Shown: one piece after another, positions 3,339-46,839 of the stretch
How the letters are laid out: the number at the start of each line of letters is the position of its first letter
Numbering within the stretch: the stretch's first letter is position 1
Source: Candidatus Moraniibacteriota bacterium
GTDB taxonomy: Bacteria; Patescibacteriota; Minisyncoccia; Moranbacterales; UBA1568
DNA: 64,000 bases
Direction: 5' to 3'
Assembly: GCA_963743885.1 (NCBI GenBank)
Contig: CAVURJ010000002.1
Coordinates: 177,706 to 241,705, forward strand
The notes under the pieces: model-generated
Database searches by the model: none
The model's input: the letters and a program-made list of their open reading frames with translations, nothing else
Told to the model about the DNA's origin: nothing
Position numbers and translations under genes: made by a program

Positions 3339-4544
3339 ATGTTCAGTAGAAACCCGAGAGGCGGAAAACCCTCTCACCCGAAGCGCAGCGGTGGCGGACG
3401 ATTTACCAAGCCGTCTTCGCGCAAGCAGAAACGCCAGGCGAAGGAGATGGACTTCTCACAGTTCGTGAAGAAAGCTATCGTGACGACTGAGACGGAGACG
3501 TATCATCCGGAACACCGCTTCGCGGATTTCGAGATGCATAGCAAGCTCAAGAAGAACGTCGCAGACAAGGGTTATGTCCATCCGACACCGATTCAGGACG
3601 GCGCCATCCCGCGCATCCTCGAAGGACGCGATGTGATCGGCATCGCCAATACCGGGACCGGCAAGACAGCCGCGTTCCTTCTGCCGCTCATCCATAAGAC
3701 CTTCAAGCACAAGACGGAGAAGGTTCTTATCATCGTGCCGACGCGCGAGCTGGCGCTTCAGATCGAAGAGGAGCTCCGCAATTTCTCCGCTGGTTCGGGG
3801 CTGCGCAGCGCACTCTGTATCGGTGGTGCCCACATGAATGACCAGATCAGGAGCATCGCTCGCGATCCGAGCTTCGTCATCGGTACGCCGGGACGGCTCA
3901 AGGACCTGATCGAGCGCAAGAAGCTCCATCTCACTGAGTTCAACAACATCGTGCTCGACGAAGTGGACCGCATGCTCGATATGGGGTTCATCCGTGACAT
4001 CAAATTCTTGGTAGCGCTCATGAAGGAGCCGCGCCAGTCACTTTTCTTCTCGGCGACCATGCCGCGTGAGATCGTAGAGTTGGCTAAGGGTTTCCTGCAT
4101 GATCCGATCACGATTGCCGTCAAGGCGCGCGCGACCTCCGAGAACGTCAACCAGGATGTCGTCCGTGTCGGACCAAAGGACGAGAAGATCGAAGTGCTTC
4201 ACGAGATCCTGCTCCGTCCTGAGTGTAAGAAAGTCCTCATCTTCGGACGCACCAAGCACGGTGTCGAGAAGCTGGCGAAGAGGCTTGTCGAGCGCGGGTT
4301 CTCCGCCGATTCTATCCATGGTGACAAGTCGCAGTCGCAGCGCCAGCGGGCGCTCCGTCGCTTCAGCCAGGATGAGATCGCTATCCTCGTCGCGACCGAT
4401 GTGGCCGCGCGCGGACTCGACATCCCGGATGTCACGCACGTCATCAACTACGAGCTGCCGGAGAACTACGAGGATTATATCCATCGTATCGGCCGTACGG
4501 GCCGCGGCAACAAGGCCGGCCACGCTCTGACCTTCGTCGACTAA
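3339..4544 (+). CDS. DEAD-box ATP-dependent RNA helicase with Arg/Gly/Lys-rich N-terminal tail
   Basis: Motif I GIANTGTGKTAAFLLP, motif II LDEVDRMLDMGF, SAT, the HGDKSQSQRQRAL box and HRIGRTGR are all present. The alternative start at 3447 has aaggag directly abutting the ATG (zero spacing), so 3339 is kept. Confidence 0.88.
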   Translation: MFSRNPRGGKPSHPKRSGGGRFTKPSSRKQKRQAKEMDFSQFVKKAIVTTETETYHPEHRFADFEMHSKLKKNVADKGYVHPTPIQDGAIPRILEGRDVIGIANTGTGKTAAFLLPLIHKTFKHKTEKVLIIVPTRELALQIEEELRNFSAGSGLRSALCIGGAHMNDQIRSIARDPSFVIGTPGRLKDLIERKKLHLTEFNNIVLDEVDRMLDMGFIRDIKFLVALMKEPRQSLFFSATMPREIVELAKGFLHDPITIAVKARATSENVNQDVVRVGPKDEKIEVLHEILLRPECKKVLIFGRTKHGVEKLAKRLVERGFSADSIHGDKSQSQRQRALRRFSQDEIAILVATDVAARGLDIPDVTHVINYELPENYEDYIHRIGRTGRGNKAGHALTFVD

Positions 4545-4627
4545 CTACTCAGAGTGCTATACTGGAGGCGCTGCCGGACCCCCTAACAAAGGGGACGAGG
4601 CGGCGCCTTTCTGTTTTCTGGAATTGT

Positions 4628-5308
4628 ATGCATTTTTTCAAGGCGTTGGAACATCTCATCCGCGAATATGCCCACGAGGTCCCGCTCGAGTGGTTTGTGC
4701 TGCTCGGCTCGTTCGCGGAGGAGGTCATAAGTCCGATCCCGTCCGCGCTCATCATGGGGACGGCTGGGTCGATCGCGCTCATGCAGGGGGCTGTTCCTGG
4801 TTATCTCGTTTTTCTTGTGCTCCTTGGTAATATCGGCAAGACGTTTGGATCGTGGATATACTATTTCCTTGGCGACCGACTGGAAGATCTGCTCATCGGC
4901 AGGATCACGAAATTCTTTGGCGTGAAGCATGAGGAGATCGAGAATATCGGCAAGCGTTTCACCGGGCATCACTGGAAGGACGGTGGCATCCTCTTCATCT
5001 TGCGCGCGATGCCGTTCGTGCCGACGACGCCGGTCTCTATCGCTGCCGGTATCATCAAGATGGACAAGCGGATATTTCTTTTGGCGACGTATGCGGGCAA
5101 TGTCATGAAGGACCTCGTCTATATCTATGCGGGCTATGCCGGTCTGGCGAAGCTTCAGACACTCTGGCGGGAGATTATTCCGGTCAAGGCCGGCATCGAT
5201 ATCCTCGTCGCGATCGGCATCATCGCATTCCTGGTGTTCCTCTATATTCATCGCGGTCGCGGAAAAGAGCTCCTGGCTCGCTGTGCGAATCATCTGACGA
5301 AGAAATGA
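4628..5308 (+). CDS. DedA/SNARE-associated (VTT domain) membrane protein
   Basis: Multi-TM protein with DedA-like GxxxGxxxG-type motifs (GNIGKTFGSWIYYFLG). It overlaps uvrB by 4 bp (ATGA). Confidence 0.72.
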   Translation: MHFFKALEHLIREYAHEVPLEWFVLLGSFAEEVISPIPSALIMGTAGSIALMQGAVPGYLVFLVLLGNIGKTFGSWIYYFLGDRLEDLLIGRITKFFGVKHEEIENIGKRFTGHHWKDGGILFILRAMPFVPTTPVSIAAGIIKMDKRIFLLATYAGNVMKDLVYIYAGYAGLAKLQTLWREIIPVKAGIDILVAIGIIAFLVFLYIHRGRGKELLARCANHLTKK

Positions 5309-10370: not shown

Positions 10371-10386
10371 TACCTGTTCTTCTTTA

Positions 10387-10437
10387 CCCTGTGAAATTCC
10401 GCCGGTAGGCGGACCAGCGAAGCTGGATTTCACAGGG
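10387..10437 (+). ncRNA. REP-like structured hairpin element, copy A (in the uvrA 5-prime leader)
   Basis: cctgtgaaat[tccgccggtaggcgga][ccagcgaagctgg]atttcacagg: a 10-bp outer stem enclosing two small hairpins. Homologous copies lie at 24341 and 30153. Confidence 0.55.
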
Positions 10438-10453
10438 TTAATGACCAGATACT

Positions 10454-13009
10454 ATGAAAGAATCCAAGAAACACAAGGAACCATCTGCGATGATCTCTGT
10501 TCGTGGCGCCCGGACGCACAATCTCAAGAATATTTCCGTCGACATGCCGCGCAATGCCATGGTGGTCTTCACTGGGCTTTCTGGCTCGGGCAAGTCGTCG
10601 CTCGCGTTTGATACCATCTTCGCCGAGGGACAGCGCCGCTATGTCGAGTCGCTCTCCGCATATGCGCGCCAGTTCTTGAATACGATGCAGAAGCCGGATG
10701 TCGATGAGATCCTCGGCCTGTCGCCGGCCATCTCGATCGACCAGAAATCAGCAAGCCGGAATCCTCGTTCGACCGTCGCCACCATCACGGAGATCTATGA
10801 TTATCTCCGCGTGCTGTTTGCACGTCTCGGACGGCCGCACTGTCTCGAATGCGGACGCGAGATCCAGAAGCTGTCCGTCGAGGAGATGATCGAGATCGTC
10901 TCTGATAAGGTGAAGGCGACCAAGAAGAAGGAAGGCGCTCTCATCATCGCGGCACCGGTCGTGCGTGGCCGCAAGGGCGAGTATTATCAGCTGCTCTACA
11001 ATGCGCTCGGCAAGGGCTTCAGCGAGATCTTCCTCGATGGGGAGCGCAAGAGTTTGCGCGAGCGCGTCATCCTTTCTAAGAATAAGAAGCACGATATCGA
11101 TCTCATCGTCGACGAGATACCGCTTCAGGAGTTCGGGAAGTTTCCCGAGACGTCCGCTGAGCGGCTCTCGGAAGCGGTGGAGCGTTCGCTTGAGGAGAGC
11201 GAGGGTTTGGTGAATATCCGCATCGCTGGGGAGACGCTTGTACTTTCGTCCAAGTTCTCTTGCCCGTATGACGGCTTCTCCTATCCAGAGGTAGAGCCGC
11301 GGCTCTTCTCCTTCAATTCACCGTACGGTGCTTGCGAGGCGTGCAATGGTCTCGGCACCAAGCATTTCTTCGGCGATGAGCCATGTGACGTCTGCCATGG
11401 GTCGCGTCTGCGTCCGGAGGCACTCCACGTGAAGATTGGTGGGAAGAATATCGTCGAGCTGACAGCTATGACCACTGTCGAGGCCAAGGCGTTCTTTGAT
11501 GGTCTTGAGCTCTCTGAGCGCGAGCGGCAGATCGCATCCGTAGTGCTGCGCGAGGTGGGCGGCCGTCTGCAGTTCCTGCTCGATGTCGGCCTCGACTATC
11601 TCTCTCTCGGCCGCCGCGCCAATACACTCTCGGGCGGCGAAGCGCAGCGCATCCGTCTGGCATCCCAGCTTGGGTCCAAGTTGGTCGGTGCGCTCTATGT
11701 GCTCGACGAGCCGACGATCGGCCTCCACAGCCGTGACAATGACCGGCTCATCGCGACACTTCAGGCACTCCGCGATCTCGGCAATACTATCATCGTCGTC
11801 GAGCATGACGAGGATACGATCTTTGCGTCCGACTACATCGTCGATATCGGCCCTGGCGCCGGCGTGCACGGCGGCGAGGTCGTGGCCTCCGGCTATCTCG
11901 ATGATCTCCTGACAGCCAAGAAAAATACATCCGGATCACTCACGCTCGCGTACCTGCGCGGCGAAGAGCGGATCGCTATCCCGGAGAAGCGCCGTGGCAA
12001 GGAGAAAGGCGCGCTCAAGGTCCGCGGTGGCAATCTCTACAATATCAAGGGCATGGATCTCGATATCCCGCTCGGCCGCTTCGTCGCGATCACGGGCGTA
12101 TCCGGTTCGGGCAAGTCGACGCTCATGTATGAAATCGTCCACAAGAATCTCCAGGTTCGCCTCGATCGTCGCTATCGTGACAACAAGACGTTCAATTGCC
12201 AAGCATTCTCTGGATCGGAATATCTTTCCCGTGCCGTGCTCATCGATCAGAGCCCGATCGGTCGTACGCCGCGGTCCAACCCGGCGACGTATACCGGCGC
12301 GTGGACACATGTCCGCGATATGTTCGCTGCGACCGAGGAGGCCCGTGTGCGCGGCTGGAAGGCCGGCCGCTTCTCGTTCAACCGTCCCGGCGGACGCTGC
12401 GAGACGTGCGAGGGCAACGGTTTCATCGCGGTGGAGATGCACTTCTTGCCGACAGTCTATGTGGAGTGCGATGTCTGCAATGGCAAGCGCTTCACCAAAG
12501 AGACACTCGAAGTGAAGTACAAGCACAAGAGTGTCTATGACGTGCTTGAGATGACGATTGAGGAAGCGTACGCGTTCTTCTTCGATATTCCAGCGATCGC
12601 TGACCGGCTCAAGACCTTGAATGAAGTGGGCCTCGGCTACCTCAAGCTCGGCCAGAGCGCGACCACACTTTCGGGTGGCGAGGCGCAGCGCGTGAAGATC
12701 TCAAGCGAACTCTATCGCCAGCATGTCGAGCGCACTATCTACCTCCTCGACGAACCGACCATCGGGCTCCACTACGAGGATGTGAAGAAGCTTATAGAGA
12801 TCCTCGATCGCCTCGTGCAGAAGGGGAATACCGTCCTTGTCATCGAGCACAATATGGATCTCATCAAGTCTGCTGACTACGTGATCGATATCGGTCCCGA
12901 AGGCGGCGTCGGCGGCGGTCAGGTCGTCGCCTACGGCACGCCGGAAGAAGTCTCGCTCAAGAAGGCTTCGCATACGGGGATGTATCTCCGCAGAGTGCTC
13001 AAGCGCTAG
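10454..13009 (+). CDS. uvrA: excinuclease ABC subunit A paralog lacking the insertion domain (UvrA, 851 aa)
   Basis: Two ABC modules ([10 protein letters not shown] / [18 protein letters not shown] x2) and zinc-finger Cys pairs are present. Compared with the second uvrA in the window, about 100 aa are missing between [16 protein letters not shown] and CDVCHGSRL (the insertion domain). The UvrB-binding-domain-like segment is retained. Confidence 0.93.
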
Positions 13010-13048: not shown

Positions 13049-13076
13049 GGGCTCACGAAACCCCTTTTTGCTTTTT
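13047..13076 (+). terminator. rho-independent terminator after uvrA
   Basis: ggggctcacgaaacccc, then tttttgcttttt. Confidence 0.65.
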
Positions 13077-13132
13077 GAATCAATTTTAAAAAAGTCTTAC
13101 GATTTACGCAATCGCGAAAATTGTCAGACTTT

Positions 13133-13167
13133 TTCATACGAGATACAAAATACTAAATACCAAATAC
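13133..13167. promoter_or_regulatory. phased heptamer array (5 x nnnATAC), inverted partner of 13014
   Basis: ttcatac gagatac aaaatac taaatac caaatac. Confidence 0.6.
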
Positions 13168-13298: not shown

Positions 13299-14030
13299 AT
13301 GGCGACTGACAAGGTCGACATCGCGGAGACGAATGCTATTTCGGCTTCGCAAATGAGTGAGTTCTTCCGGCTGGCAGCCAAACACGGCAGCCATGTCAAT
13401 CGGGAAACATTTCAGATGTTTCTCGAGTGGAAGCCGCTGTTTCTTGAACCGGGTACGAACGAGTTTCTCCGTTTGGCGCGCACCATCGATGAAATACGCA
13501 TCAAGATGGGCGTGAGCGATAAACAGTTCCGTACTCTCTGGACTCCCGAAGGTCGTCCGTATCTCGAGCGTATGATCGCCGGCCTAGTTGATACGATCAT
13601 TCGTGTCGACCGTTCCATTAGACCGGTTTACCCTAATTGGGCGAAGACGATAATGCATCCGGAGCTAGAAGCGACTGGCCCGGCCGAATATGACCTTTTC
13701 GAAGTGGAGCCTTGGCTTCATGAAGGCCAGAAGAACGGTCAACACATAGCGGGCTATCAGATTTATAAGTATTTGAAGGAACAGAAGATGCTCAAGAGCT
13801 GTCTGTCCCTCCGTGACGGCGAAGAAATCCGAAAAAAAGGCCCAACCGTTTTTCAGAAGGTCTTCGGAGATAGAGAGATCCTTCTGTGGAAGTCAGTTGT
13901 ACAGCATCGCGACAACCGCATCGCTGTCCCATACATTCGCAAGGATCGCGGTGAGATGGGAGGAGACTGGCTCGGTCTCAGTGAAATCGCGTTTGGTAAA
14001 GGATCTGTGACCCCGCGTTTCACAAGGTAA
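13299..14030 (+). CDS. hypothetical protein
   Basis: 243-aa ORF with SD aaggag upstream, coding-like codon usage and no recognised domain. Flanked upstream by phased heptamer arrays. Confidence 0.5.
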   Translation: MATDKVDIAETNAISASQMSEFFRLAAKHGSHVNRETFQMFLEWKPLFLEPGTNEFLRLARTIDEIRIKMGVSDKQFRTLWTPEGRPYLERMIAGLVDTIIRVDRSIRPVYPNWAKTIMHPELEATGPAEYDLFEVEPWLHEGQKNGQHIAGYQIYKYLKEQKMLKSCLSLRDGEEIRKKGPTVFQKVFGDREILLWKSVVQHRDNRIAVPYIRKDRGEMGGDWLGLSEIAFGKGSVTPRFTR

Positions 14031-24105: not shown

Positions 24106-24340
24106 TCAACAAAAACCACCGGCTTTAGCCGGTGTGTGCGTTTAAAGCGTAGCAAGTTTTCCACTCAACCTTAAAAAAATCGCCTCTTCATTCTTTCGTT
24201 CCCTTCCGCTCAATTTCCAATACTTCACTCCCCAAGAGACCATGTTTTCAAATAAGGCTTTTTCCGCCGGCTTTGCCGGCAGGATAGAAACTACCAGCGA
24301 GAGCTGGTAGTTTTCATTTTGGTTGTATTCCGAGGGTTTA

Positions 24341-24379
24341 CCCTATGAAATTCCGCCATGTGCGGACAATTTCATAGGG
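24341..24379 (+). ncRNA. REP-like hairpin element, copy B (shorter variant)
   Basis: ccctatgaaattccgccatgtgcggacaatttcataggg: the same outer stem and first inner hairpin; the second inner hairpin is missing. It sits immediately upstream of the -10 tgtataat. Confidence 0.5.
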
Positions 24380-24419
24380 TGTATAATTTGGGTATTCGTG
24401 ATTTTTATTTTTCAGAGAA

Positions 24420-24704: not shown

Positions 24705-25369
24705 TTACGAACAGCATGAAAAGAGTGGCGGTGCTTATCATCTCGGGAGGGGTGTTCATAGCGGCGACGGCGTGGCTGTTTTCGCATGCGTCGGTGCAGT
24801 GGAAAGCGCTAGATCTCTGGGAAGTGGTGACTGGCCACTATATCATCGAGCACGATACGCTCAGCGGTACAGATAGGTATGTCGGCGTGAGCCGTGACCG
24901 TATGGATCGGGTAGCGTTGATCAATACGGAGACGAAGGAGAAGATGCGGGAAATTGCAGTGCAGCACAAGGCAAAAGAGGAGGCGGAGAAGGAACGGGCG
25001 GAGGCCACGGAAGCGATGCGCGTGGATAGCGCATGGACGTTGCTTAGGGGGGATCCGGGCGATAGCTGTTCCGGTCCGACATACACTGGTGAAGTCGCGG
25101 TACATGGATGGTATATGTTGGAGTATCCTTACGGCAATAAGACATGGGCGTTCAAGCTTGCCCCAGAGGATCGGAAGAAGATATTCGTTGCAGAATATGA
25201 TTATTCTTTTAGGATTGCGGATGCATCGGCCGCACTCAAGCAACGGTTGCATCAGGCATCGGAGAAACATCCGGCCGAACTGACAATTCGCGGGATGATG
25301 TATTATTGTGAAGGGATGCCGATCGTAAGCATCGACGCGCCCGGCCCGAAAGGCATCATATTCAAATGA
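24701..25369 (+). CDS. membrane-anchored hypothetical protein
   Basis: N-terminal TM helix, charged coiled segment, Cys-containing C-terminus. Co-oriented and translationally coupled with 24420..24704. Confidence 0.5.
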   Translation: MITNSMKRVAVLIISGGVFIAATAWLFSHASVQWKALDLWEVVTGHYIIEHDTLSGTDRYVGVSRDRMDRVALINTETKEKMREIAVQHKAKEEAEKERAEATEAMRVDSAWTLLRGDPGDSCSGPTYTGEVAVHGWYMLEYPYGNKTWAFKLAPEDRKKIFVAEYDYSFRIADASAALKQRLHQASEKHPAELTIRGMMYYCEGMPIVSIDAPGPKGIIFK

Positions 25370-25373
25370 TCAT

Positions 25374-25736
25374 ATGAAAGTCTGCAAGACCGTCGGGGAA
25401 TATGAGAAGAGCCTGCCTGAGGAAGCGCTCGCGGAATTCGTCGCGCTATGGGGCGTGATCCGTGAGATGGTGCCGGAGGGCGAGGAGGCGATCCGCTATG
25501 GCGTGCCGACGATCCGGATCAATGGGAGGAATCTGGTCCATCTGGCCGCCGCGAAAAACCATCTCGGATTCTATCCGGCCCCTTCGGGCGTGAAGGCGTT
25601 CGAGAAGGAAATCCGGGGGAAGTATGCATACAGCAAAGGCACGATCCAATTCCTGCTCGGCAAGAAGCCGCCGCTCGGTCTGGTCCGTCGCATCGTCCGC
25701 TTCCGCCTCGCCGAGGAGCGCGCGAGGAAGAAATGA
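25374..25736 (+). CDS. DUF1801 (YdhG-like) domain protein
   Basis: GVPTIRINGRNLVHLAAAKNHLGFYP ... GKYAYSKGTIQF matches DUF1801. Confidence 0.72.
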   Translation: MKVCKTVGEYEKSLPEEALAEFVALWGVIREMVPEGEEAIRYGVPTIRINGRNLVHLAAAKNHLGFYPAPSGVKAFEKEIRGKYAYSKGTIQFLLGKKPPLGLVRRIVRFRLAEERARKK

Positions 25737-25750
25737 TTGCATCCCAATCC

Positions 25751-25785
25751 TCTTCCTTCTTCTTCTTCTTCTTCTTCTTCTCTTT
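25751..25785. repeat. (CTT)n microsatellite, about 8-10 units
   Basis: tcttccttcttcttcttcttcttcttcttctc is intergenic, 15 bp after the DUF1801 gene stop. Confidence 0.9.
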
Positions 25786-25831
25786 CGCTCCCTCATCCCT
25801 TCACGCCTTCCTTTCCGCATTTCTTTTGATA

Positions 25832-25865
25832 GTGTCATAATTCCGCGGCCGCGGAATTATGACAC
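25832..25865. repeat. 34-bp perfect palindrome P1 (gtgtcataattccgcggccgcggaattatgacac)
   Basis: A perfect inverted repeat with the sequence gcggccgc at its centre. An identical copy lies at 26617. Confidence 0.85.
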
Positions 25866-25989
25866 GGCGCTAAGAAACGATACACGCTATTTTCTATGAT
25901 GGAATATGAGGGTAAGATAGAGGTAAGATGGAGATAAGACGGGTATAGGGAGAGGTAAGAATGTGGGTGGATAGGATAAGCAGAAGCAT

Positions 25990-26625
25990 ATGTATAAATT
26001 CGGCCCGGTACAACAGAAGATCCTTCTTTTGTTAGTCGGAGGTATCGCGCTTGGATTGGAGACGTCATCAATTCGGTACTATCGGAAGCTGGGGATGCTG
26101 ATGAAGGACCTGAAGGAGATCGATGCTCGCAATTTGCGTCGCTCGATGGGACGTTTGTGTCTGCAGAAGCTTGTGGAGGAAGTGTACCTTCCCGACGGTT
26201 CGTTCAAGCTGGTCTTGACGGAGGCGGGGAAACGGCAGGCGCGTATCCAGCTTCTTTTCGGTAAATCAATCCGTTTCCGGAATCCGAAGCGTTGGGATAA
26301 GAAGTGGCGCATCGTTATGTTCGATATCCCAGAAAAGGAGAAGAAGTTCCGCGATATCTTACGCGAACACCTGCGCGAATTGAGATTTTATAAGCTGCAG
26401 CATAGTGTCTTCGTGTCCCCGTATCCGTGCGAGAAGCCGCTGTTGGAGTTGGCGGCCCTCTATAAGGCGGGGCCGTATGTAAGGGTAGTGACGGCCGAGC
26501 GGATAGATAACGAAGAGAAGCTCAAGGACCATTTCTTCCGTTCGAAGCCTGTGAAATCGAAAAAATCTTTGAAATCCGCGAAGCTTTCAAAAAGAAAAAA
26601 CAGTTCAAAAAATTCCGTGTCATAA
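25990..26625 (+). CDS. PaaX-like transcriptional regulator (N-terminal wHTH plus Cas2-like-fold C-terminal domain)
   Basis: WRIVMFDIPEKEKKFRDILREHLRELRFYKLQHSVFVSP is the Cas2-like fold of the PaaX C-terminal domain. Its stop codon lies inside a 34-bp perfect palindrome. Lys/Ser-rich tail. Confidence 0.5.
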   Translation: MYKFGPVQQKILLLLVGGIALGLETSSIRYYRKLGMLMKDLKEIDARNLRRSMGRLCLQKLVEEVYLPDGSFKLVLTEAGKRQARIQLLFGKSIRFRNPKRWDKKWRIVMFDIPEKEKKFRDILREHLRELRFYKLQHSVFVSPYPCEKPLLELAALYKAGPYVRVVTAERIDNEEKLKDHFFRSKPVKSKKSLKSAKLSKRKNSSKNSVS

Positions 26626-26650
26626 TTCCGCGGCCGCGGAATTATGACAC
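26617..26650. repeat. 34-bp perfect palindrome P2 (identical to P1)
   Basis: It contains the stop codon of the PaaX-like gene (…aattccgtgtcaTAA…). A T-rich run follows. Confidence 0.85.
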
Positions 26651-26696
26651 GTGTTTTCTATAATGAAATATCGTTTTATCCTTAACAGGAACGGGT

Positions 26697-26972
26697 ATGA
26701 AAAAAGTATACAGACAGTGCCAGTCATGCGGGATGCCACTGAAACGGGACCAAAATGGTGGCGGGACGGAGCTGGATGGTTCGTGTAGCACTATGTATTG
26801 TAGCTCTTGCTATCGTGACGGCGCTTTCGTCCGGCCGGAGATGACTCTTGAGGAGATGCAGCAGCAGGTCGATGATGTTCTGAAGAATGAGATGGGGTGG
26901 TGGAAACCGTTTCGTTGTCTGGCTGTGCGCCAGATCCCGCGTCTCGCCCGTTGGTCACAAAACGAGCGGTGA
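26697..26972 (+). CDS. zinc-ribbon domain protein
   Basis: CQSCGMPL ... CSTMYCSSCYRDGAF: two CxxC pairs in a zinc-ribbon arrangement. Confidence 0.6.
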   Translation: MKKVYRQCQSCGMPLKRDQNGGGTELDGSCSTMYCSSCYRDGAFVRPEMTLEEMQQQVDDVLKNEMGWWKPFRCLAVRQIPRLARWSQNER

Positions 26973-26985
26973 TTGATTTCAAATT

Positions 26986-27019
26986 GTAACATAATTCCAC
27001 GGTCGTGGAATTATGTTAC
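26986..27019. terminator. palindrome P3 (variant of P1/P2) plus T-run: likely bidirectional terminator
   Basis: gtaacataattccacggtcgtggaattatgttac followed by tttttgttttg. It lies between the convergent genes 26697..26972 (+) and 27095..27901 (-). Confidence 0.6.
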
Positions 27020-27094
27020 TTTTTGTTTTGAGGATTTTTGATAAGAAAAAACCGCCGCACAGCTTGGCTGGCGACGGCGTTGTGCCCGGGGTGG

Positions 27095-27901
27095 CTAACT
27101 GAAGAACGCGGGGACCTGGTTGACTTCGACGAGCAGGCCTTCGTTCGAGTGGCGCGGGCGATGTATCTCCTTCCATCCGGAATCCCAGAAGGGTGTTTCG
27201 GCAGGGCGGATCTTGCGCACCCACTTGGCGTACGGGTGGATTTTTCCGCTGTTCGGATCCTTGCGCGTGTAGTGCATGATCTCGCAGTTGTGGATGCGGT
27301 CCGCGGGGTCGTCGGAAGAGACGAGCTCGCGGAAGCGTTGCTGCGAGGGGCGTTCGAGGCGGACCTGGAAGCCGCGCATCACTTCGCCGTGACAGACGAG
27401 GATGACATTTTCATAACCGCTGCATTCGCGGTGCAGCGTGAGGAGTACGCGGTCGATGCGCATACAGAGGCTCATGAACGATTCGCCATTGGGCGGACGC
27501 CAGAAGAACGGCTCGATACTCCGCATCTTGAGCGCGGCAGCGAAGCGCGCATTGCGCTCGTTCTCGGGAGCGATATCGATGTCGCCCCAGTCGCGCTCGG
27601 TGAGGTACGGATCGCTGAGCCAGTCGCTGAACGGCAGGCCAAGCAGGGCGGCGGTCTCTTTGGCACGGATGTATTCCGACACGTAGTAGCGGTCGAAGGC
27701 GACTGCAAGATGCTTCTGGATCCAGCGGCCGGTGTCTTCTGCTTGTTGGCGCCCGAGGGCGGTGAGCCGGAAACTGCCGGAGTGGCGGTTGCGGAATTCC
27801 TCGGAATAGGCGGAATGGTCGCCGGCCTCGGAGAGTCGTTTGGCGGCGTTGCCTTCGGATTGTCCATGGCGGACCAGGATGAGATTGACGGGCAGTGTCA
27901 T
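27095..27901 (-). CDS. histidine phosphatase superfamily (phosphoglycerate mutase-like) protein
   Basis: LILVRHGQSEGN RHG motif, a downstream catalytic His (VCHGEVMRG) and the expected length. The + ORF 27038..28000 is antisense to it and rejected. Confidence 0.82.
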   Translation of the reverse strand: MTLPVNLILVRHGQSEGNAAKRLSEAGDHSAYSEEFRNRHSGSFRLTALGRQQAEDTGRWIQKHLAVAFDRYYVSEYIRAKETAALLGLPFSDWLSDPYLTERDWGDIDIAPENERNARFAAALKMRSIEPFFWRPPNGESFMSLCMRIDRVLLTLHRECSGYENVILVCHGEVMRGFQVRLERPSQQRFRELVSSDDPADRIHNCEIMHYTRKDPNSGKIHPYAKWVRKIRPAETPFWDSGWKEIHRPRHSNEGLLVEVNQVPAFFS

Positions 27902-45369: not shown

Positions 45370-46839
45370 ATGCCGAAGCTCTGGGAAAAATCAGTAACGC
45401 TCGAAGCGTTTAAGAAAAAAAACAGGCTACCGGAAGTGCCGGGAGTGTATTTTTTCTTGGGAAAGAAGAAGGAGGTCCTCTATATCGGCAAGGCGACGAT
45501 TCTTCGTGACCGGGTGAAGAGCTATTTCTCGCAGGACATCATGGAGACGCGCGGGCCGAAGATTGCTCTTATGCTCGGGAAGATCCGGTCCATCGCGTAT
45601 CGGAAGACTGATTCGGTGCTTGAGGCGCTCATCCTCGAGACCAATCTCATCAAGGAGCATCAGCCGTCGTACAATACCGACCAGAAGGATGATAAGAGCT
45701 ACAATCATGTCGTCATCACGGATGAACTGTTCCCGCGCGTCTTGGTCATAAGAGGAAGAGATTTAGAAAAATATCCTCCTGTCATTCCCGCGAAGGCGGG
45801 AATCCAGAAAAAGAAATCCTGGATCCCGGGTCAAGCCCGGGATGACATAAGAATAAAATATTCATTCGGGCCGTTCCCATCGGGTGGCGGATTGCGTGAA
45901 GCGATGAAGATCGTGCGGAGGCTTTTCCCATATCGGGATACGTGCGTGCCAACGGACAGTCAACAGTCAACAGCTAACAGTCAACAGCGAACAGAGAACA
46001 ATCAGCAGTCAACAGCGAACAGAGAACAATCAGCAGTCAACAGTCAGCAGCTAATAGTTAGCAATGAACAAAAAGCAGTCATCAGTCAACGAAGAAAAAA
46101 GGCCGTCCCTCAAGCGTGTTTTAATAGGCAGATTGGTCTGTGTCCGGGAGTATGTACTGGTGAGATATCCGCTAAGGAATATGCACGGATAATCAATCAT
46201 ATCCGGCTGTTCTTCGAAGGACGGAAAAGTATGCTGGTGAAGCGGCTCGAGCGCGAGATGAAGGCGGCTGCCAAGGCGCTCGAGTTTGAGCGGGCTGGCG
46301 AGATCAAGAAGACGCTTTTCGGTCTGCAGCATATCCAGGATATGGCGCTTGTGAAGAATGACGAACGACTCACGACTCACGACTCACGACAGGGAGTGCG
46401 GATTGAAGCGTATGATGTGGCGCATCTCATGGGAGAGGCGTCGGTCGGTGTGATGACGGTCGTTTCCGGAAGTTATGCGGATACCGATGAGTATCGGCAG
46501 TTCAGGTTGCGAGGGGATCATAAGGGCAATGATCTCGCAGCGCTCGAGGAAATATTGTTCCGCCGCCTGAAGCATCCTGAGTGGGGACGGCCTGATGTCA
46601 TTGCGGTTGATGGATCATTCCTCCAGCTCGGCGTCGCTGAGCGCCTTTTTGACGGACTTCCTGAGAAGCCGCTTCTGGTTGGCGTTGTGAAGGACGCGCG
46701 ACACAAGGCGAAGGAGATCATCGGGTTGCCGGCGGGCTTCGCTCGGCTTGAGACTGATATATTGCTCGCGAATAACGAGGCACACCGCTTCGCTATCGCT
46801 TTTCATCGCAAGCGTCGCGGGAAGGAATTCTTGAAGTAA
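45370..46839 (+). CDS. uvrC: excinuclease ABC subunit C (UvrC), short form with two in-frame repeat insertions
   Basis: GIY-YIG domain (GVYFFLGKKKEVLYIGKA), Cys motif FPYRDTC ... CFNRQIGLCPGVC, UVR domain (EMKAAAKALEFERAGEIKK) and the RNase H-like endonuclease domain (RIEAYDVAHLMGEA). The C-terminal HhH2 domain is absent or short. Confidence 0.92.
   Translation: MPKLWEKSVTLEAFKKKNRLPEVPGVYFFLGKKKEVLYIGKATILRDRVKSYFSQDIMETRGPKIALMLGKIRSIAYRKTDSVLEALILETNLIKEHQPSYNTDQKDDKSYNHVVITDELFPRVLVIRGRDLEKYPPVIPAKAGIQKKKSWIPGQARDDIRIKYSFGPFPSGGGLREAMKIVRRLFPYRDTCVPTDSQQSTANSQQRTENNQQSTANREQSAVNSQQLIVSNEQKAVISQRRKKAVPQACFNRQIGLCPGVCTGEISAKEYARIINHIRLFFEGRKSMLVKRLEREMKAAAKALEFERAGEIKKTLFGLQHIQDMALVKNDERLTTHDSRQGVRIEAYDVAHLMGEASVGVMTVVSGSYADTDEYRQFRLRGDHKGNDLAALEEILFRRLKHPEWGRPDVIAVDGSFLQLGVAERLFDGLPEKPLLVGVVKDARHKAKEIIGLPAGFARLETDILLANNEAHRFAIAFHRKRRGKEFLK
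45781..45846 (+). repeat. 66-bp palindromic element inserted in-frame in uvrC (translates as VIPAKAGIQKKKSWIPGQARDD)
   Basis: gtcattcccgcgaaggcgggaatccag ... ctggatcccgggtcaagcccgggatgac: two inverted similar halves, each itself a hairpin. It replaces the roughly 8-aa loop that E. coli UvrC has between the GIY-YIG domain and FGPFP. Confidence 0.65.
45957..46095 (+). repeat. tandem repeat block inside uvrC (28-bp unit x2 perfect, plus degenerate cagtcaacag sub-repeats)
   Basis: cagtcaacagcgaacagagaacaatcag occurs twice in tandem at about 45978-46033. The block is read as QQSTANSQQRTENNQQSTANREQSAVNSQQ and expands the loop inside the UvrC Cys motif from about 11 to about 57 aa. Confidence 0.8.
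46366..46388 (+). repeat. heptamer tandem repeat (cgactca)x3 inside uvrC
   Basis: cgactcacgactcacgactcacgac encodes TTHDSR. Confidence 0.8.

Follow-up and report, generated by a model that had tools for sequence, protein, structure and literature searches.

Around a small regulator gene of a Candidatus Moraniibacteriota bacterium stand three copies of a 34-bp palindrome, two of them identical and one a variant. The locus raises the question what these palindromes are for, and whether they belong to the protein that is encoded between the first two. The gene lies in a 64,000-nucleotide (nt) stretch of genomic DNA, here called the window, and encodes a winged helix-turn-helix (wHTH) protein with a Cas2-like domain, for which we use the name mini-PaaX. 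Because the same layout of site, gene and site is found across the whole protein family, the palindromes are most likely the protein's own binding sites. On balance we favour the reading that they are its cognate sites, the upstream copy acting as an autoregulatory operator and the downstream copy as an operator and terminator; binding is predicted from the sequence. The four features in question are the following.

25832..25865, no strand: palindrome copy 1, a perfect 34-bp dyad with no T-run and no adjoining -10 box
25990..26625, plus strand: mini-PaaX regulator gene, 211 aa, with a Lys-rich tail that runs into copy 2
26617..26650, no strand: palindrome copy 2, the same as copy 1, holding the regulator stop codon, with a T-run after the hairpin on both strands
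26986..27019, no strand: palindrome copy 3, between convergent genes and followed by TTTTTGTTTT

The two copies of GTGTCATAATTCCGCGGCCGCGGAATTATGACAC at 25832-25865 and 26617-26650 agree at all positions (34/34, 0 mismatches). This had been claimed in an earlier note on this DNA, together with the presence of the regulator stop codon in the second copy, and both are borne out: the open reading frame (ORF) of the regulator terminates with the TAA of GTG TCA TAA inside copy 2. Each copy is perfectly palindromic to its centre, so the half-sites of 15 bp given in that note have to be corrected to arms of 17 nt. The third copy, rightly announced there as a variant at 26986, reads GTAACATAATTCCACGGTCGTGGAATTATGTTAC (26986-27019) and has 27/34 identity to copies 1 and 2. 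Its seven differences consist of the mirror-symmetric pairs 3/32, 4/31 and 14/21 and the single central base 18. Dinucleotide shuffles of the window (n=100) gave no match to GTGTCATAATTCCGCGGCCGCGGAATTATGACAC, even with three mismatches allowed. Within the 64 kb, CATAATTCC is confined to the three sites (6 hits vs 0.57 expected), and no further palindrome copies were found in the window beyond copies 1-3. At the gathering thresholds of Rfam no known RNA family was detected at the sites of the window and of 18 loci.

The bracket of two sites is not a peculiarity of the window. Orthologues with 70% (L001-L003) and 68% identity (L004) have a variant palindrome upstream of the gene and another one at the stop codon, and the bracket is kept in these loci and in about 14 genome loci. 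For the family as a whole, 80 metagenomic loci with homologues of 38-72% identity were used, from which 71 distinct loci with enough flank remained; a bracket was counted when the 300 nt upstream of the gene shared a direct repeat scoring at least 14 with the surroundings of its stop. It is present in 53 of the 71 loci, whereas the control, in which the flanks were compared with the gene body, gave 0/71. The earlier assignment of the palindromes to the regulator is thereby strengthened.

The repeats of the family are long dyads with lineage-specific arms (e.g., AATCATTTrGTGA, GGTATACT, CTCACCAATGTC, TAGCAAATAAC) and a centre that is almost always CGGCCG, CGATCG or CGGTCG. The arms vary between lineages and paralogues and agree within one locus. 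On one contig (L033) a CATAAT-type site even occurs together with a 41% paralogue that has its own TTATTCTACGCGG|CCGCGTAGAATAA pair. Arm divergence increases with protein divergence, and the partial correlations with arm distance are equal for the wHTH (0.12) and the Cas2-like domain (0.10), so that no domain is singled out. Arms that track the lineage and separate pairs for each paralogue are the main argument that the protein recognizes the dyads flanking its gene. The downstream copy is kept both where the next gene is co-directional (38/47) and where it is convergent (12/18). As it is indifferent to the orientation of the next gene, it belongs to the regulator unit.

A scan for GTNNCATAATNNNNCGGNCGNNNNATTATGNNAC in one genome per species (596 Gb), for which by our own arithmetic less than one chance match is expected, returned 50 loci. 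Nearly all of them are in metagenome-assembled genomes (MAGs) of Moranbacteria, with 1-8 loci (strict matches) per genome, for example four on a 389-kb contig and one on a 393-kb contig. The hundreds of sites by which a plain repetitive extragenic palindrome (REP) would be recognized, a possibility raised in the earlier note, were not encountered. The consensus is GTwwCATAAT-N4-CGRYCG-N4-ATTATGwwAC. In the 42 distinct 34-mers the outer blocks GTwwCATAAT and ATTATGwwAC, their 14-bp spacing and the centre are constant and the N4 blocks vary, a constancy that is partly imposed by the search patterns. The centre is CGGCCG in 26, CGACCG in 10 and CGGTCG in 5 of these 34-mers. Several genomes have a non-palindromic centre region (e.g., AATGCGGTCGTCAG), and the RNA hairpins of such asymmetric-centre sites are weak (-9 to -12 kcal/mol, z -1.4 to -2.6) when compared with the window copies (-24 to -28 kcal/mol, z -6 to -9). 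The weak folding of these variants indicates that the conserved thing is a DNA sequence pattern and not simply a hairpin.

In viral contigs the motif had 0 matches; one regulator homologue lies on a putative viral contig. A number of site-bearing MAGs carry unexpected names, namely 'uncultured Bdellovibrionales' (L005, L009, L011, L012, L018, L026-L032, L038, L048, L052), 'Micavibrio sp. IMS_BF-2' (L030, L043, L046) and 'Ca. Fimivivens sp.' (L010, L029), and some of these MAGs also encode regulators 55-67% identical to the window protein. Since Ca. Fimivivens is a Clostridia (Oscillospiraceae) genus in the NCBI taxonomy, the organism labels are probably wrong.

The designation of the regulator as a 'PaaX-like wHTH' in the earlier note holds at the level of the fold. 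The 211-aa product matches PaaX_M (PF20803, Cas2-like) with E = 5.5e-23 and 81.3 bits, against a cut-off of 24, and consists of an N-terminal winged helix, the PaaX_M domain at residues 100-176 with an invariant FDIPE and a Lys-rich tail. Two acidic residues of the Cas2-like domain, D112 and E115, do not vary in the alignment of orthologues. An AlphaFold model built on 22 orthologues (mean pLDDT 77.5) has a winged helix at the N terminus and a domain of ferredoxin-like fold. When it was compared with the PDB by Foldseek, the best matches were E. coli PaaX (8a39) and Rv0674 (3kfw), with MarR/PadR winged helices and Cas2 ranking after them; a sequence search of the Cas2-like domain against the PDB gave only spurious DnaA matches. 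Outside PaaX_M and Cas2, no Pfam or NCBIfam match was obtained, and neither an HUH motif nor a recombinase was found in the regulator.

Two more familiar identities were tried and rejected. As a true PaaX the protein reaches only 27.3 bits with TIGR02277, over residues 37-168, against a curated cut-off of 264.55 bits; it has no C-terminal PaaX domain, ending about 35 residues after the Cas2-like domain, and no paa genes are nearby. The Cas2 profile TIGR01573 gives 26.1 against a cut-off of 24.5, yet covers only model positions 2-40 of 96, and the Pfam Cas2 profile gives 22.6, under its cut-off of 23.8. In addition, a CRISPR Cas2 is a stand-alone protein of about 90 aa and not a wHTH fusion. 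No cas families occur among the neighbours, and in the 64-kb window no CRISPR array was found by Tandem Repeats Finder and no cas1. The protein is therefore a mini-PaaX, a wHTH plus Cas2-like PaaX_M protein of about 190-210 aa, and neither a true PaaX nor a CRISPR Cas2. At E <= 1e-10 and with clustering at 50% identity, the family comprises about 2,500 representatives, and among the 150 listed with the best scores nearly all are 180-200 aa long. The source names of close homologues point to Moranbacteria/Parcubacteria, and a 65% paralogue (P0024) is encoded on the window's own 500,284-bp contig.

If the protein binds these sites, their position relative to promoters should tell what binding would do. 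In the relatives the upstream copy overlaps promoter sequence: AAT follows directly after the site in 10/17 upstream copies, compared with 3/21 downstream and 4/52 solo copies. With AAT behind the right arm the sequence reads ATTA-TGwTACAAT, which is a near-consensus extended -10 box overlapping the arm. Across the family TGnTAnnnT occurs in the gene-proximal (right) half of 19/48 upstream vs 8/48 downstream copies. A protein bound at the upstream site would block access to the -10 box, as in the classical design of autorepression. To the left of the downstream and solo copies the sequence tends to be A-rich, to their right T-rich. These copies lie near gene 3' ends, many of them 0-40 nt from a stop, and many ORFs use the site's own TAA. 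With the genes of the other loci called by a codon-model caller, convergent genes surround the site in 20 cases and divergent genes in 9.

For the window itself the surrounding features are needed, which are given here in their order along the DNA.

25374..25736, plus strand: DUF1801 gene, the syntenic upstream neighbour of the regulator
25751..25781, no strand: (CTT)10 microsatellite, part of a pyrimidine-rich stretch to the left of copy 1
25898..25960, no strand: purine-rich tandem repeat, 32-nt x 2.1, between copy 1 and the regulator ATG
26659..26664, plus strand: TATAAT hexamer, candidate -10 for the Zn-ribbon gene, from sequence only
26697..26972, plus strand: Zn_ribbon_2 gene, between copies 2 and 3
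27095..27901, minus strand: His_Phos_1 gene, convergent on copy 3

Copy 1 lies 95 nt past the DUF1801 stop and 124 nt ahead of the regulator ATG, and it does not have the T-run of an intrinsic terminator. Copies 2 and 3 do have terminator anatomy, a hairpin of -24 to -28 kcal/mol followed by a T-run, in copy 2 on both strands, so that copy 2 looks like a bidirectional terminator. Only 8 nt separate the end of copy 2 from the TATAAT box, and copy 2 would overlie the -35 and spacer region belonging to this box ahead of the Zn-ribbon gene. Copy 1 is followed by a similar stretch, TTTTCTATrATGrAATAT, at 25890-25908. The variant copy 3, with its hairpin and T-run, stands 13 nt past the Zn_ribbon_2 ORF and 75 nt from the end of the His_Phos_1 gene. 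As the latter is convergent, copy 3 is not in the promoter region of a downstream plus-strand gene. It is preceded by ATT, which results in TGtTACAAT on the minus strand and could be an antisense promoter.

The mechanism that we propose from this is as follows. The protein whose gene lies between copies 1 and 2, presumably a dimer, would have the three dyads as its cognate DNA sites. In the conserved site some two helical turns separate the CATAAT blocks, and the CG-rich centre falls between these blocks on the same side of the helix; there the Cas2-like domain may have a role. Each gene of the family would have a copy of its own site at either end, the two in direct orientation. By overlapping the gene's promoter (with the extended -10 in most orthologues), the upstream copy would permit autorepression, and the downstream copy would mark the 3' end of the unit; with its palindrome and T-runs it is here probably also an intrinsic terminator or insulator. 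Lying over the -35 and spacer of the TATAAT box, copy 2 probably controls the Zn-ribbon gene, and copy 3 would end the Zn-ribbon transcript as well as the convergent phosphatase transcript. The picture of a regulator bracketed by two operators, which the earlier note had drawn, finds strong comparative support in its core, namely predicted cognate sites of which the upstream one is probably autoregulatory. The operator role of the second copy has to be qualified: it ignores the next gene and has terminator anatomy, and further copies sit at 3' ends and in Wzy genes.

Several observations weigh against this reading. Autoregulation, supported by the TGwTACAAT of 10/17 upstream copies in the relatives, is weaker in the window, where copy 1 adjoins no -10 box and lies 124 nt from the ATG; a consensus sigma-70 promoter was not found in 25300-27300. 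The persistence of the downstream copy before a convergent next gene is not explained by a simple operator, and the weak hairpins in several genomes mean that termination cannot be the general function. An all-against-all BLAST of the site-adjacent proteins revealed no recurrent family except the regulator and no conserved regulon.

Further difficulties for a plain operator are at the same time what speaks for the first alternative, in which the sites take part in a DNA transaction, be it recombination at CGRYCG, cleavage with repair, or hairpin-based mobilization by the wHTH-Cas2-like protein. The site-gene-site units would then be cassettes and the solo sites footprints or trans-mobilized copies, comparable to REP/RAYT, attC and pdif. 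In this respect the O-antigen-ligase (Wzy_C) genes are instructive, as a site lies in-frame in three of them (L016 7642-7675, L023 2290-2323, L032 1896-1929), where it adds the peptide ..IIPRPWNYDT.. and is followed by a T-run in the sense strand. Among 120 Wzy_C homologues the insert is intact in 7, decayed in about 8 and absent in about 100; the carriers form one subclade, and the element is conserved better than the coding DNA around it. Such an in-frame copy, intact in some genes and decaying in others, has the look of an insertion. On the window's contig there is a Wzy orthologue, P0134; its peptide IIPRPRNYDT matches the genome-private CCGCGGCCGCGG variant with centre GCGGCCGC. This match makes it a fourth copy and implies that copies within a genome evolve in concert.

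The sites themselves add to this. At the variable positions mirror symmetry is found in 222/294 cases vs 158 +/- 8 for shuffled half-site pairings, and a dimer that does not contact the variable bases would not enforce such a symmetry. The two copies of one locus may differ in the inner arm, with each of them still self-complementary (L081, L095, L004, L001). Hybrid sites such as AATG-CGGTCG-TCAG combine the halves of two palindromic types, and half-site types are also recombined among L072, L078 and L077. Wherever copies bracket the gene or form arrays, their orientation is direct (L010, L021, L024, L044, L013, L072), and the arrays part miscellaneous accessory genes (HD, Mrr_cat with Zn ribbon, MazE, GIY-YIG, Cdd1 and unknowns). 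Where the centre is asymmetric (AATGCGGTCGTCAG), the orientation of the site agrees with the sign of the local GC skew in 12 of 13 loci (L008, L010, L017, L021, L022, L024, L039, L040, L044, L047, L049, L051, L054), and the sites of L039 and L040 follow the skew and not the majority coding strand; a strand or skew bias of that kind is known for transposition of single-stranded DNA. The invariant acidic residues D112 and E115 would also suit a protein that acts on DNA.

What counts against a transaction is, first, the stability of the regulator locus. The regulator gene is preceded by DUF1801 in the window, L036 and L055, as well as in L030, there at a distance of about 1 kb. On the other side, the window and L001 share an orthologous cupin (77% identical), and in L036 further window genes recur downstream. 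Synteny of the regulator thus spans lineages of 55-77% identity, and variation among these genomes is restricted to a few kb just 3' of the regulator. Paralogues within one genome are old (40-65% identical), a near-identical multi-copy set was not seen, and the copy number is low. Among close relatives no clean filled-vs-empty pair was found, the pairs being colinear or ambiguous. A single breakpoint falls on the centre: between L076 (3421-3469) and L077 (1041-1226), which are 97-99% identical, homology ends exactly at the palindrome centre ACGGCCGT, and the left half-site is swapped for a different type. The other boundary in L077 is marked by NN, a scaffold gap, however, and the break may come from the assembly. 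In L123, L124 and L133 one 3' hairpin is replaced by another. A recombinase or HUH motif is missing from the Pfam and NCBIfam matches, and the sites were not found on viral contigs.

The Zn-ribbon gene is neither a conserved partner nor a mobile cassette, as its 72-73% homologues elsewhere have neither sites nor regulator. The 1.2-kb mobile cassette that the earlier note had offered as its second explanation is not supported in the form proposed, the regulator being syntenic with DUF1801 and the cupin and the Zn-ribbon homologues standing elsewhere free of sites; weaker hints that recombination takes place at the sites persist. All in all, a DNA-transaction role for the sites appears unlikely to us. 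Somewhat more doubtful still is its most specific version, in which a hitherto unknown system for DNA transactions in the candidate phyla radiation (CPR), REPtron- or integron-like and built on the Cas2 fold, would use the dyads for recognition and crossover. There the wHTH would bind the arms, the Cas2-like dimer would act on the CGRYCG centre, and the copies would be spread or homogenized, which would yield hybrid half-sites, site-bounded accessory cassettes and solo sites, including in-frame ones.

Cognate sites of the regulator thus remain the preferred reading, and the next alternative to be set against it is a plain one. The palindromes could be strong bidirectional intrinsic terminators repeated by chance; the bracket would then just punctuate small transcription units and have nothing to do with the protein. 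The stable hairpins (-24 to -28 kcal/mol) and the T-runs of copies 2 and 3 would fit, as would the position of copy 3 between convergent genes, the 20 convergent vs 9 divergent contexts, the many sites 0-40 nt from a stop and the A-rich and T-rich flanks. But the 34-bp sequence is conserved across genera, with arms that follow the protein lineage, and its loop and centre are kept as well, for which a terminator has no need. The T-run is absent at copy 1 and at most upstream copies, a -10 box adjoining these upstream copies instead, the asymmetric-centre variants fold weakly, and an in-frame copy is kept in the intact Wzy ORF of at least 7 homologues. We therefore consider this explanation improbable.

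Least probable of all are chromosome landmarks bound by the protein, either polar fork or transcription barriers of the RTP-Ter type or organizing sites of the parS/matS type: the few sites per genome, some of them within genes, the agreement of asymmetric sites with GC skew in 12/13 loci (in L039 and L040 over the coding strand) and the precedent of B. subtilis rtp, a wHTH protein gene that adjoins its own sites and is autoregulated through them, stand against a monotonic cumulative GC skew over the window, which places the locus at neither origin nor terminus (within ~25-38 kb), against the perfect palindromy of many sites including those of the window, which makes them non-polar, and against several paralogue-site pairs in one genome, which are unusual for chromosome maintenance.

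Some observations on the flanks of the sites should be recorded. The 253-nt spacer 25737-25989 is predicted to form one long hairpin with copy 1 at its tip (minimum free energy -83.7 kcal/mol, z -3.6), in which the CT-rich 5' arm including the (CTT)10 pairs with the purine-rich 3' arm including the tandem repeat. Because the spacers of the closest relatives are much shorter, this hairpin is apparently specific to this genome. The CTT microsatellite described outside the left palindrome is real, as (CTT)10 at 25751-25781. The near-identical contigs L078 (4655-4700) and L086 differ by a 41-bp length polymorphism in a purine-rich low-complexity tract, which sits just 3' of the regulator's downstream palindrome; in the window similar purine-rich repeats lie beside copy 1. 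In L004 an insertion sequence element (DDE_Tnp_1 and DUF4096 ORFs, minus strand, 3958-5001) has come between the upstream palindrome and the regulator and parts site and gene by about 1 kb. A Logan contig of 3,277 bp (ERR12035942) from the same organism, with an identical Zn-ribbon gene, starts about 75 nt before the start of this gene. Its end falls in copy 2, a sign that short-read assemblies may break because copies 1 and 2 are identical. Other window neighbours of the regulator are Band_7 and Cupin_2 genes (Pfam).

The window contains further repeats of other kinds. A second, unrelated hairpin family is found at 10383-10441 and 24337-24385 with the sequence TTTACCCTrTGAAATTCCGCC...(loop)...ATTTCAyAGGGT, 13-40 nt 5' of two plus-strand ORFs (10454, 24420). 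Its copy at 24368 leads into GGGTGTATAAT, which resembles an extended -10 box, and the family may be another operator/promoter module. At 13066-13157, in the AT-rich spacer from an 851-aa ORF (ending at 13009) to an ORF starting at 13299, lies an imperfect inverted repeat of 44 nt with 73% complementarity and a 4-nt gap. A tandem array at 45956-46050 consists of ACAGTCA x 13.6, or alternatively of a perfect 28-nt unit x 2.4, and is unrelated to the palindromes.

CPR bacteria have tiny genomes with few recognizable regulators, and no genetic tools are available for them. With this analysis a large uncharacterized protein family gains a precisely predicted target on the DNA, together with a conserved gene architecture and a model of the promoter in which the extended -10 lies within the site. 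It also has a practical side: members of the family are routinely mis-named 'Cas2' or 'PaaX', of which the Cas2 label should not be used, and the palindromes can break assemblies. Should the symmetrization, the hybrid half-sites, the in-frame gene copies and the strand bias indeed reflect an activity of the Cas2-like domain on DNA, this would be a new role of the fold outside CRISPR.

Literature searches on PaaX with Cas2-like domains, on PaaX in the candidate phyla radiation and on palindromic repeats in Patescibacteria turned up no account of the arrangement, which resembles several known systems in part. The B. subtilis RTP is a small winged-helix dimer with few sites of about 30 bp per genome and its gene beside sites. 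The asymmetric sites described here are likewise co-oriented with GC skew, but no terminus is near, the sites of the window are symmetric and the protein is of another family. Rho-independent bidirectional terminators share with copies 2 and 3 the GC-centred hairpin flanked by A- and T-tracts; they differ from the sites in that these are conserved in sequence across genera, track the protein lineage, have no T-run at copy 1 and include weak-folding variants. The Rickettsia palindromic elements (RPE) are comparable to the in-frame palindrome in an intact gene (here Wzy_C), which adds a short peptide. In our case only a single gene family of this kind was seen, the element measures 34-55 bp, and it is tied to a specific family of DNA-binding proteins.

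Same-orientation imperfect palindromes between single accessory genes (L010, L021, L024, L044), together with hybrid half-sites, recall the attC sites of integrons and the pdif sites of Acinetobacter. In contrast to these, no integrase or Xer gene is linked in the neighbourhoods examined, the arm spacer is 14-16 bp instead of 6-8 bp, and the site ends GTwwC/GwwAC do not fit the attC cores RYYYAAC/GTTRRRY. The arms presumably resemble the XerD arm (ATTATGTwAC); in Xer/dif, however, 11-bp arms enclose a centre of 6-8 bp, whereas the CATAA...TTATG blocks are 16 bp apart. With REPtrons (REP/RAYT) the locus has in common that palindromes flank the gene of a DNA-binding protein, that scattered extragenic copies lie mostly at 3' ends and that copies are homogenized within a genome. 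Unlike there, the protein is no HUH/Y1 transposase, the copies are few per genome and not hundreds, and the flanking copies are direct and not inverted.

The nearest structural relatives are PaaX and Rv0674, with the same succession of N-terminal winged helix and Cas2-like middle domain (8a39 and 3kfw as best structural matches). PaaX represses from palindrome-like operators close to promoters. By comparison, the window protein is smaller by about 100 residues, lacks the C-terminal domain and has no paa genes nearby, and its site, a 34-bp dyad centred on CGRYCG, occurs in two direct copies around the gene and, in addition, at unrelated 3' ends.

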